Origin: a virus
Lineage: Duplodnaviria > Caudoviricetes
Reading direction: 5' to 3' (one strand)
Length of the DNA stretch: 64,000 bases
IMG/VR virus record: IMGVR_UViG_2880949579_000002
Span: 1,060-65,059 of that record
Positions 12,802-15,219 of the stretch are shown one piece after another; the first letter of the stretch is position 1, and each line of letters starts with the position of its first letter. Both the position numbers and the translations under genes were made by a program. The notes beneath the pieces were generated by a model that did not search any database, was not told the DNA's origin, and was given only the letters and a program-made list of their open reading frames with translations.

Positions 12802-15219
12802 ATGTTAGGAGCTATTATCGGGGATATCGTGGGTTCCCGTTTTGAATGGAATAATAACAAGAGTAAGCAATTTGATTTATTAACTTATAAATGTAGTGTT
12901 ACCGATGATTCCATAATGACTTTAGCTACAGCTAAAGCGCTGTTAGAAAGCAAGTCGGATTATAGTGACCTGTCCGAAAATGCTGTAAAATATATGAAGA
13001 ATATCGGACAACACTACCCAAACTGTGGATATGGTGGGCATTTCAGAGAATGGATATATTCTGACAATCCAAAACCATATAACAGCTATGGTAATGGGGC
13101 AGCGATGCGTGTCAGTGCATGTGGATTCGTAGCAAATACCCTGGAAGAAGTGAAACAACTATCAAAAGCTGTGACAGAAGTAACACACAATCATCCTGAG
13201 GGGATAAAAGGTGCAGAGGCAACAGCTGTTGCTATCTTCCTGGCACGTTCTGGAAAAAACTTGCTAGAGATTCGCGACTATATAACAAAGAATTATTACC
13301 CGTTGAATTTTTCCCTTGATGAAATACGGGATAATTATGAGTTTAATGACAGCTGTCAGGGAACTGTTCCTCAAGCCTTGGAAGCTTTCTTCGAGTCGAA
13401 AAATTTTGAAGATGCAATTCGTAACGCCATATCAATTGGTGGCGATAGCGATACCCTTGCAGCTATTACAGGTGGTATCGCAGGAGCTTACTATGGAATA
13501 CCTACAGATATTAGAAAACATGCTCTGACCTTCCTTGACGAGCGCTTACTTAAGATTTTGGTAGAGTTTGAAAATAATTATCCATCAAAGATGGAAAAAA
13601 TCAATTCAGTCGGTAGTATTGGCATCGAAAGAAATGCAGAGACCAAAGTGCAGACAGGGAATAGAAAAACTATGATGCAGTCCTCTGTAGAAATAGCAGA
13701 GAAAGAACTAAATGATTCGATTCCTACAAATGAAGAGACGACAAGCCAGCAACTATTTAATCATCTATTTGAGGCTTGCAATATTCTGCGAGGACCAATA
13801 AACCAAGATGAGTATAAAAGTTATGTGACTCCAATCCTCTTTTTTAAGAGAATTAGTGATGTTTATGACGAAGAAACTCAAGATGCACTTGAGCGCTCTG
13901 GTGGAGATGAGGAGTATGCTAGATTTCCCGAGAACCACAGTTTTGATATTCCTGTGGGATGCCACTGGCAAAATGTCAGGGAAGCAAGTGAAAATGTTGG
14001 TGTTGCAATCGTCAAAGCAATGAATGGTATTGAGCGTGCTAACCCAGATACTTTAAGTGGTGTGTTCAGTAGCTTTGATGATGCTAATTGGACTGACAAA
14101 ACTAAACTCTCAGACGAGAGACTAAAAAATTTAATAGAACATATGTCAAAAATTAAAGTTGGTAATGCGAATTACTCAGCTGATGTTATGGGAGATAGTT
14201 ATGAATTTCTGATTAAGAAATTTGCTGATTTATCAAAAAAGAATGCTGGTGAATTTTATACCCCACGCTCCATTGTCAAACTTCTCATCATGCTTCTGGA
14301 TCCAAAGATTGGTGAAACAGTCTATGATCCAGCTTGTGGAACTGGAGGAATGTTAATAGAAGCCATACGGTACATGAAAAACGATAAAATGACGTATGGC
14401 CGAATATATGGTCAGGAGAATAATCTATCTACATCTGCAATTGCTAGAATGAATTTGTTTTTGCATGGTGCAAAGGATTTTAAGATTACACAAGGTGATA
14501 CACTGCGTTCTCCTAATTTTCTTGAGAAAGGTAAATTAAAAACTTTCAATTGCGTTGTAGCGAATCCTCCCTTTTCGTTGAAAAAATGGGGTTCACAACA
14601 ATTTAGCACAGATATATATGGTCGAAACATGTGGGGAACCCCAACTGACTCCAATGCTGATTTTGCATGGCTGCAACACATGGTGAAGTCGATGGACGAA
14701 AAAACCGGCCGTTGTGCTGTTGTTTTACCACAAGGTGTACTATTCCGAGGGGGTAGAGAAGCAGAAATTCGCAAACAACTGATTGAATCAGACAAGCTGG
14801 AATGCATTATTACACTGGTAAGCGGCGTGTTTTATTCAACTGGAGTATCAGCTTGTATTCTTTTTCTAAACAATAACAAGAAAAATGATCATAAAGGTCG
14901 TATATGCATGATCGATGGTTCTGATATATTCACAGCACAACGAGCACAAAATATAATGACCGACAATGACGTAGAGAAGGTCTACAATTTGTATGACGAT
15001 TATAAAGATGTTATTGAAAAAGTAAAAGTGGTCACGATTCCCGAAGTGAAAGACAAGGGCTATAGTCTAGCGATCAATAATTATATTGAAAGAAAAGAAC
15101 AAGAAATTACTCCTCCAACTGAAATAAGAAAACAGTATTTTGATGCACTTGAAAAAATGATTGAGGCTGAAAAAATAATGATGGAATTATTGCTTGAAGG
15201 AGGATATGTCAATGAGTAA
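12802..15219 (+). CDS. hsdM: ADP-ribosylglycohydrolase (DraG/ARH family) fused to type I MTase subunit (NPPF)
   Basis: N-terminal GAIIGD, TDD, GNGAAMR, THNH, GGDSDT; C-terminal GEFYTP, YDPACGTGG, ANPPF; single uninterrupted frame. Confidence 0.9.
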   Translation: MLGAIIGDIVGSRFEWNNNKSKQFDLLTYKCSVTDDSIMTLATAKALLESKSDYSDLSENAVKYMKNIGQHYPNCGYGGHFREWIYSDNPKPYNSYGNGAAMRVSACGFVANTLEEVKQLSKAVTEVTHNHPEGIKGAEATAVAIFLARSGKNLLEIRDYITKNYYPLNFSLDEIRDNYEFNDSCQGTVPQALEAFFESKNFEDAIRNAISIGGDSDTLAAITGGIAGAYYGIPTDIRKHALTFLDERLLKILVEFENNYPSKMEKINSVGSIGIERNAETKVQTGNRKTMMQSSVEIAEKELNDSIPTNEETTSQQLFNHLFEACNILRGPINQDEYKSYVTPILFFKRISDVYDEETQDALERSGGDEEYARFPENHSFDIPVGCHWQNVREASENVGVAIVKAMNGIERANPDTLSGVFSSFDDANWTDKTKLSDERLKNLIEHMSKIKVGNANYSADVMGDSYEFLIKKFADLSKKNAGEFYTPRSIVKLLIMLLDPKIGETVYDPACGTGGMLIEAIRYMKNDKMTYGRIYGQENNLSTSAIARMNLFLHGAKDFKITQGDTLRSPNFLEKGKLKTFNCVVANPPFSLKKWGSQQFSTDIYGRNMWGTPTDSNADFAWLQHMVKSMDEKTGRCAVVLPQGVLFRGGREAEIRKQLIESDKLECIITLVSGVFYSTGVSACILFLNNNKKNDHKGRICMIDGSDIFTAQRAQNIMTDNDVEKVYNLYDDYKDVIEKVKVVTIPEVKDKGYSLAINNYIERKEQEITPPTEIRKQYFDALEKMIEAEKIMMELLLEGGYVNE

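Follow-up and report, generated by a model that had tools for sequence, protein, structure and literature searches.

Type I restriction-modification (R-M) systems count among the best-studied defences, and phages are known to counter them with DNA mimics, by modifying DNA or by destroying cofactors. One class of these systems carries an upstream methylase M1 with an NPPF motif (N6-methyladenine, m6A) and a downstream methylase M2 with an NPPY motif (N4-methylcytosine, m4C), followed by the S and R genes (PMC5100572). DarTG toxin-antitoxin modules often sit within operons of type I R-M genes (PMC8883491), and in T4-like phages the orphan NADAR hydrolase AdfN strips DarT1 ADP-ribose from DNA guanine (PMC11825919); the T7 kinase is a phage enzyme that disarms defences by post-translational modification (PMC13645617). 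Among the ADP-ribosylglycohydrolases (ARHs), Tri1 (of the pair Tre1-Tri1) and Lmo0067 are immunity proteins against ADP-ribosyltransferase toxins, erasers that shield a cell's own proteins from a hostile transferase, and the entry 8za7 for the latter is titled ‘ART-ARH type toxin effector-immunity protein pair’, ART standing for ADP-ribosyltransferase. Here we describe a 64,000-nucleotide (nt) stretch of viral DNA (Duplodnaviria; Caudoviricetes; IMG/VR record IMGVR_UViG_2880949579_000002, positions 1,060 to 65,059), called the window below, in which one gene (12802-15219, plus strand) joins an ARH domain in frame to a complete type I methylase subunit HsdM.

We regard the identity and architecture of this fusion as close to certain. 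A literature search on ARH together with HsdM or type I restriction found no paper that describes it, and the fusion is real, widespread and undescribed in the literature searched. The fuller statement, in which this architecture is combined with an eraser mechanism and the R-M cassette is phage cargo, is put forward tentatively. New here are the near-obligate linkage of the fusion, with counts, to an upstream gene that we call up539, the homology of up539 to Esub1, the structured connector, the selection figures, a census of the ARH clade with its Macro-domain neighbours and its abundance in phages, and a test of whether the fusions form one clade.

The fusion gene and its protein

The fusion gene is a single open reading frame (ORF) of 805 amino acids (aa) with an ATG start and a stop-free translation, as read from the ORF list and the translation. 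Its parts are the following.

12789..12794, plus strand: Shine-Dalgarno sequence AGGAGG, 7 nt 5′ of the ATG at 12802 (read from the sequence)
12802..13587, plus strand: ARH domain, residues 1-262, with metal-binding residues E15, T34-D35-D36 and G213-T218 (Pfam, motifs, fold)
12901-12909, plus strand: T34-D35-D36 of the ARH (motif alignment)
13438-13455, plus strand: G213-T218 of the ARH (motif alignment)
13588..13749, plus strand: connector, residues 263-316 (alignment, AlphaFold model)
13750..15219, plus strand: M1 methylase part, residues 317-805, with HsdM_N, N6_Mtase, a C-terminal helix and the stop codon (Pfam, PDB phmmer, structure alignment)
14563-14574, plus strand: NPPF of M1, residues 588-591 (translation)

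Three Pfam domains follow one another in this frame: ADP_ribosyl_GH (PF03747) at residues 1-233 (E 1.6e-40; 140 bits, the gathering cut-off being 26.2; profile positions 3-281 of 287), HsdM_N at residues 320-448 (E 2.9e-24) and N6_Mtase at residues 459-768 (E 4.6e-97). The preliminary description had read about 260 N-terminal residues as an ARH with its metal-binding motifs intact, joined without a stop to a complete HsdM, and this holds: its two motifs, TDD (residues 34-36) and GGDSDT (213-218), align to solved ARHs. In HMMER alignments E15, T34-D35-D36, GNGAAMR, HNH and G213-G214-D215-S216-D217-T218 all match the equivalents in ARH3, Lmo0067 and MJ1187. The fold of the predicted domain (residues 1-261 of an AlphaFold model, compared with VIA-align) is likewise that of the family, with Z scores of 25.6 to ARH3, 25.2 to MJ1187, 24.2 to Tri1 (6dre_A), 23.4 to DraG, and 22.4 each to Lmo0067 (8za7_A) and ARH1. 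Judged by profile, fold and two-metal site residues, the domain is a short-form member of the ARH family.

In an alignment of 40 fusion proteins drawn from three collections (64-86% identity to the window protein), all ARH catalytic positions and the NPPF motif are invariant in 40 of 40. Nei-Gojobori ratios of non-synonymous to synonymous change (dN/dS) are 0.056 for the ARH (53 of 780 pairs unsaturated), 0.037 for HsdM_N and 0.045 for the methyltransferase (MTase) domain; the connector has 0.275 and the C-terminal tail 0.283. Synonymous sites are mostly saturated, so that 26 to 321 of the 780 pairs are usable per region. By these figures purifying selection acts on the ARH as strongly as on the methylase and, because its motifs are invariant in all 40 proteins and its dN/dS lies near that of the MTase domain, the ARH is apparently catalytically competent.

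The connector is alignable in all 40 fusions, with near-constant length, few indels and a semi-conserved sequence, and F256, E257 and E265, around its start, are invariant among them. In the AlphaFold model of the fusion protein (predicted local distance difference test, pLDDT, 83.3 overall) it forms a hairpin at residues 263-276 and a helix at 288-306, with pLDDT 81-93 over residues 261-300. The linker noticed earlier is thus present, and the idea of a loose tether gives way to a predicted structured element of about 55 aa that would be more than a spacer.

For the methylase part, the best PDB matches of residues 317-802 found with phmmer are the two methylases of PacII, M1 (7vru_A, E 7.2e-138) and M2 (7vru_B, E 1.7e-118), and the next HsdM, 3lkd, follows at E 1.9e-59 only. 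The model of the M1 part aligns to PacII M1 (7vs4_A) with Z 42.7 in VIA-align. The gene 3′ of the fusion (15194-16708) is a second complete HsdM with HsdM_N and N6_Mtase in Pfam, and motif IV reads NPPF in the fused HsdM and NPPY in the second (P0121). The locus order M1-M2-S-R matches the description of Morgan et al. (PMC5100572), and M2 homologues lie 3′ of ARH-M1 in related loci. On this sequence evidence the fused HsdM is the m6A-type M1 of a type I R-M system of the PacII type, which has two methylases (M1M2S, m6A/m4C); the locus thus holds a pair of paralogous methylase genes, and the HsdM noticed first, complete as stated, belongs to this pair. The NCBIfam HsdM equivalog model TIGR00497 scores 219.6 for the fusion and 208.1 for M2, below its cut-off of 242.75, and the PacII clade seems to sit at this model's margin.

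The gene product is, by its reading frame, one bifunctional polypeptide of ARH, connector and complete HsdM. The earlier statement that no strong internal ribosome-binding site exists agrees with the sequence: an internal ATG pair (13672-13677) is preceded, at 11 nt, by just a weak AGGGA-like stretch. Homologues do not conserve this Met pair (MM, MI, II, LI, LM), and promoter-like sites between 10600 and 15400 are about as frequent as chance predicts (18, with 16.3 +/- 3.8 expected). Separate translation of HsdM is accordingly disfavoured, and a conserved internal start was rejected as a general feature. Contigs from two metatranscriptome libraries of two studies, X15 (13511-13912) and X16 (13449-13772), run from the ARH through the connector into HsdM_N with no indels; further public runs list near-identical DNA, and four RNA-library runs were compared. 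Because such libraries can contain DNA, their support for a single product is weak, and as contigs they let neither expression level nor strand be read; parts of the cassette have no cover in them.

Recurrence, partner gene and prophage setting

With residues 1-320 as query, PF03747 occurs alongside HsdM domains (PF03747 + PF02384) in 119 of the 120 protein clusters listed, most of them 805-811 aa long, the exception being P0037 with PF03747 alone; the architecture ADP_ribosyl_GH + HsdM_N + N6_Mtase is therefore a recurrent one. Source names of the fusion clusters include Listeria, Bacillus, Lysinibacillus, Lachnospiraceae and Dehalococcoides. In contigs of one genome per species, 599 stretches encode relatives of the ARH, and the best 80 loci comprise 8 ARH-M1 fusions and 72 non-fused ARHs; among viral contigs, 294 encode a relative and the best 80 loci comprise 12 fusions and 68 non-fused ARHs. 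Metagenome loci reached through up539 hold ARH-M1 in one frame at 65 of 76 assessable loci. The fusion is thus not unique to this assembly, and an assembly artefact or lost stop was rejected, since the same frame recurs across clusters, genomes and viral contigs. Eight sequenced-phage records and the 15 listed of 29 plasmid records gave ARH-only matches, with the connector never at high identity; one plasmid match exceeds the ARH, reaching residue 302 at 37.7% identity.

In a FastTree phylogeny of 257 ARH domains, the 42 fused domains fall in one region of the tree together with the 20 nearest non-fused relatives, split into groups of 24, 14, 2, 1 and 1. Support for the deep nodes is weak, and this tree does not unite the fused ARHs in one strict clade. 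An approximately unbiased (AU) test on 49 sequences (18 of the 42 fusions, 19 near relatives and 12 randomly drawn others) did not reject a tree with the fusions as one clade (p-AU 0.71), whose likelihood was above that of the freely searched tree. Since the connector is homologous in 40 fusions and one clade is not rejected, a single fusion event is the simplest reading; judged from these sequences the fusion probably arose once and then spread, which is not proven.

The fusion gene sits in a larger group of genes, all on the plus strand.

8941..10695, plus strand: large serine integrase (Pfam Resolvase/Recombinase/Zn_ribbon_recom; phrog_95, E 2.4e-141)
11168..12787, plus strand: up539 (P0122), pseudo-HsdM with Esub1-like target recognition domain (TRD) and dimerisation helix (Pfam, alignment, AF2, Foldseek, phmmer)
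15194..16708, plus strand: M2 methylase (P0121) with NPPY, overlapping the end of M1, likely ATG at 15206 or 15212 (translation, Pfam)
16692-17747, plus strand: hsdS, full (Pfam)
17748-18833, plus strand: hsdS, full (Pfam)
18862-19884, plus strand: tyrosine recombinase (Pfam)
19850-20476, plus strand: half hsdS (Pfam)
20501..23410, plus strand: HsdR restriction subunit (Pfam HSDR_N, SWI2_SNF2, T1R_D3-like)

Directly upstream of the fusion gene, up539 encodes a protein of 539 aa with a Methylase_S match at residues 357-506 and a faint N6_Mtase match in Pfam; its well-conserved family (534-561 aa) has 675 matches, and in the protein atlas residues 1-345 fall among N6_Mtase clusters. In an alignment of 37 homologues the GxGxG motif is changed to IAE[GA]EKF and NPPF/Y to xP[NSAH][FM][GA], and because both the GxGxG S-adenosylmethionine (SAM) motif and NPPF/Y are missing, up539 is probably not a methyltransferase. 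Its TRD-like part is nearly invariant across the 37 homologues, whereas true specificity domains vary greatly. Over the whole chain, the AlphaFold2 (AF2) model (pLDDT 80.7) is structurally closest to 7eew_A, a single-chain M-S MTase (Foldseek, E 1.5e-21). Residues 353-536 match Esub1 with E 3e-36 in phmmer and 36-37% identity, and in Foldseek the C-terminal part superimposes on Esub1 with a template modelling (TM) score of 0.88-0.90 (chain 8vsr_B: 0.89, 37% identity) and a root-mean-square deviation of 2.2-2.3. Esub1 (SpyM3_0890) of Streptococcus pyogenes is a homodimer of half-S type to which paratox, a phage protein, binds (PMC11754733), and the homology would place this orphan protein in a family that is also found within R-M cassettes. 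By residue count on the alignment, the Q66/R69 region of Esub1, which holds the residues mutated by its authors (PMC11754733), aligns with a conserved EEERK.xNY in up539.

The up539-based survey covered 80 metagenome loci, 76 of them with at least 300 bp downstream, and an ARH follows up539 at 74 of the 76. ARH-M1 is in one frame at 65, the ARH is cut by the contig end at 6, and 3 loci are broken or ARH-only (L085, L115, L117); in L085 (1903-2703) the ARH stops at 266 aa, with unrelated sequence beyond it. The other two loci are L157, with a plain M1, and L104 (5955-6083), in which a 43-aa ARH stub alone remains after up539. Starting from the fusions, up539 is present in the locus of 6 of the 8 species-level fusions and 9 of the 12 on viral contigs, two of the latter (L168, L181) having almost no upstream sequence to assess. 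Three viral contigs (L163-L165) show a variant order, up539-hsdR-ARH-M1-M2-hsdS, in which the up539 linkage is kept.

The slot between up539 and ARH-M1 can hold further genes. In 19 of the 80 metagenome loci it contains a family of about 220 aa without a Pfam match (e.g. L093:7608-8261, L118:6171-6827), which in the protein atlas meets only ‘hypothetical’, mostly viral clusters and which gave 0 BLAST hits among the neighbours of non-fused ARHs. Elsewhere the same slot holds an HNH protein (about 330 aa), a DUF2971 protein (320 aa), or two uncharacterised proteins of 757 and 791 aa.

The fusion travels as a cassette of up539, ARH-M1, M2, at least one hsdS with or without the recombinase, and HsdR. 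In the window this cassette lies between the serine integrase and genes for phage replication, terminase, portal, head, tape measure and tail (27554-51108), and serine recombinases stand upstream of up539 in several related loci. The cassette is prophage cargo, moron-like, beside the integrase of a temperate phage.

Within the specificity region (16692-20476), in which all three hsdS genes and the recombinase are on the plus strand, a 300-nt direct repeat of 100% identity (18264-18563 = 19889-20188) and shorter direct repeats at the TRD borders were observed. No inverted repeats between the hsdS copies were found in this region, and any hsdS shuffling would therefore proceed by direct-repeat exchange, not by inversion. 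Directly after hsdR, 23425-25338 encodes a 637-aa protein (phrog_4031, E 2.3e-165; weak capP and helix-turn-helix matches), relatives of which adjoin the cassette or its remnants in L104, L117, L165 and L166.

Possible functions of the ARH domain

The ARH of the window belongs to a large clade. Searching residues 1-273 against 1.84 billion representatives gave 11066 matches at E <= 0.001; among the top 150, a length of 330 aa or more is reached by 109, and just two of those are HsdM fusions. A Pfam census covered 102 of the 109 multi-domain representatives (within P0124-P0272), leaving out the fusions P0123 and P0141, the tandem ARHs P0154, P0198, P0203 and P0239, and P0169 (1595 aa). Partners among the 102 include DUF6508 (10), SseB (5), HD_4 (3), kinase (2) and GNAT (2), with single cases of Macro, patatin, RecA, TnsA-like nuclease, RNase_T and flavodoxin, and most C-terminal extensions have no Pfam family. 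At the 72 non-fused species-level loci the commonest neighbour is a Macro-domain gene (18/72), and R-M genes or other matches to window-protein queries lie near the ARH at only 4 of the 72. Stand-alone relatives also occur in named phages, of Porphyromonas and Bacteroides. The clade is promiscuous, often phage-encoded and often beside Macro-domain genes, and ARH and Macro form an apparent two-eraser module with no writer in sight.

The Macro-domain neighbour is a protein of about 348 aa (e.g. L045:1510-2553) in an apparent operon with the ARH, seen in loci L010-L082, and a weakly von Willebrand factor A-like protein of about 223 aa lies immediately downstream of the ARH at 12 of the 72 loci (e.g. 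L042:2637-3302). The host genome holds a second, stand-alone ARH on contig C12:88784-89515 (L002; open frame 294 aa, PF03747 E 4.9e-27).

We propose that the ARH acts as an orphan eraser that stays with the R-M complex on the DNA. It would hydrolyse the ADP-ribose that hostile ADP-ribosyltransferases, from superinfecting phages or other conflict systems, attach to R-M subunits or to DNA at the complex, and restriction and methylation would thereby be kept working, with the dead HsdM-TRD protein up539 as an accessory module alongside ARH-M1. We consider this mechanism possible and hold it with some reserve. It draws support from the Macro neighbours, the matches to ARH immunity proteins, the orphan erasers of phages, the presence of DarTG in type I operons and the lack of a visible writer, no ADP-ribosyltransferase having been found among the cassette genes (Pfam) or the sampled insert genes (Pfam, PADLOC). 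A tethered eraser is compatible with all findings and has precedents in Tri1/Lmo0067, the phage orphan erasers, DarTG in type I operons and, among phage enzymes that modify defence proteins, the T7 kinase.

Several results weigh against this proposal. To our knowledge no ADP-ribosyltransferase targets type I R-M proteins, and a literature search found none. The link to HsdM need not be mechanistic, because the clade is fused to many unrelated domains, and the stand-alone ARHs common in phage contigs (68 among the best 80 viral loci) fit a role in the service of the phage equally well. The six structural Z scores lie within about 3 units and do not separate ARH subtypes; as the values are tied, the substrate class is not assignable from the fold. 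The ARH scores 65.2 with the NCBIfam model for DraG (TIGR02662, cut-off 337) and 39.4 with that for Tri1 (NF041672, cut-off 490), and residues 1-273 match 0 families of PADLOC 2.0; the full fusion protein matches 48 PADLOC families, of which the 25 listed are all methyltransferase-type models. Moreover, ARH-M1 and up539 can work apart, because L006 and L008 (species level) and L172 (viral) have no up539 within 2.8 to 10 kb upstream, and in L157 (7433-9049) up539 is accompanied by a plain M1, which has no ARH and retains only the last few connector residues.

A phage-serving role of the ARH is a serious rival, because the cassette is prophage-borne. The enzyme would then reverse DarTG/CmdTAC-type ADP-ribosylation by which the host attacks phage DNA, RNA and proteins, and the fusion to M1 would provide DNA proximity and co-expression. 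The 12 fusions on viral contigs and the stand-alone relatives, common on phage contigs (294) and present in named phages, fit this account, and phages use orphan NADAR erasers in this way (PMC11825919). However, removal of DarT-type, base-linked ADP-ribose is not reported for ARH-family enzymes in the available excerpts of PMC8883491 and PMC11825919. The strongly constrained methylase fusion and the linkage to up539 would also be left unexplained. Further, such an enzyme should act early in infection, but genes beside an integrase are typical lysogen cargo (morons). On balance we find counter-defence doubtful.

Extending the tethered eraser, ARH-M1 and up539 could jointly serve as ‘armour’ that lets a type I R-M system withstand anti-restriction. 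A dimer of the pseudo-methylase would imitate an M2S complex and either absorb or sense anti-restriction factors of phages, or keep hold of ADP-ribosylated DNA, and the tethered ARH would erase ADP-ribose on the complex or the DNA. We rate this as unlikely; if true, ADP-ribosylation would be a natural, unrecognised anti-restriction strategy and the ARH the first built-in anti-anti-restriction eraser.

Two further explanations fare worse, and we judge both to be improbable. In the first, the ARH and the dead HsdM-TRD protein tune their own system, e.g. by delaying restriction in a new host or by responding to an ADP-ribose-derived metabolite or to endogenous ADP-ribosylation. A regulatory use of an ARH is known from the DraT/DraG cycle; the tight linkage of up539 and ARH-M1 (74/76 loci, 9/12 viral fusions) and a connector that is structured and semi-conserved, not floppy, agree with self-regulation, and a cassette that moves between distant hosts needs safe establishment. 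Against it, the cassette genes and sampled insert genes contain no writer, and the nearest non-fused relatives adjoin Macro genes, not regulators. The host genome likewise gave no match of the DarT or exotoxin type to profiles PF14487 (DarT) and PF03496, a search without positive control that is uninformative because control genomes were equally silent. In the second, the ARH is a chance-fused passenger that has a small molecule as its substrate (O-acetyl-ADP-ribose, ADP-ribose-derived signals) or only binds a ligand and does not bear directly on restriction, for which speak the many unrelated fusion partners in the clade (102 multi-domain representatives) and the small-molecule hydrolases within the ARH family (review, PMC8883491). 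A passenger would hardly be expected to show purifying selection equal to that on the methylase, invariant catalytic residues in fusions down to 64% identity, a fixed-length connector and a near-obligate up539 linkage.

An artefact, or two proteins translated separately from one frame, to which the internal ATG pair with its AGGGA-like stretch would lend itself, can practically be dismissed given a frame of about 805 aa in more than 100 independent clusters and loci, RNA-library contigs without junction indels, an unconserved internal Met and promoters that are not enriched.

Returning to the tethered eraser, a conserved and selected ARH within a methylase, nearly always accompanied by a dead methylase-TRD protein, suggests that ADP-ribosylation matters in the attack, protection or regulation of restriction complexes, where it could concern the enzyme or the DNA. 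A function for the window ARH would also inform a large, promiscuous and often phage-encoded clade (11066 representatives).

Comparison with known systems

This organization resembles that of PacII (PMC5100572; PMC9613975; PDB 7vru/7vs4) in its adjacent paralogous NPPF M1 and NPPY M2 followed by S and R. It differs in that PacII M1 has 499 aa and lacks an N-terminal enzyme domain, whereas the window cassette adds the ARH and a dead HsdM-TRD gene, has several copies of hsdS plus a recombinase, and lies in a prophage. The terms ‘ADP-ribos’ and ‘glycohydrolase’ are absent from the main texts of PMC5100572 and PMC9613975, their supplements, possibly with gene maps, not being covered.

The C-terminal part of up539 shares with Esub1 (8vsq/8vsr, PMC11754733) a single TRD and a dimerisation helix, the make-up of a half S subunit; Esub1 stands alone, far from R-M genes, whereas up539 adds a whole degenerate HsdM and is part of an R-M cassette. 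In joining an HsdM body to a TRD, up539 is also like the M-S MTase of Vibrio vulnificus YJ016 (7eew, crystallised with Ocr), from which it differs by the loss of GxGxG and NPPF/Y.

With Tri1 (6dre) and Lmo0067 (8za7) the window ARH has the fold and the metal-binding motifs in common, but it is shorter (about 260 aa), has no adjacent cognate toxin gene and is fused to a DNA methylase. AdfN is likewise a phage-borne eraser without a writer that takes part in phage-host conflict; it has a NADAR fold in place of the ARH fold, stands alone and has a shown activity on ADP-ribosylated DNA guanine. DarTG, finally, offers the same genetic tie between ADP-ribosylation machinery and hsd operons in an anti-phage setting. 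There, the writer DarT is paired with a separate macrodomain or NADAR eraser, whereas the window carries an ARH-fold eraser alone, fused to HsdM.

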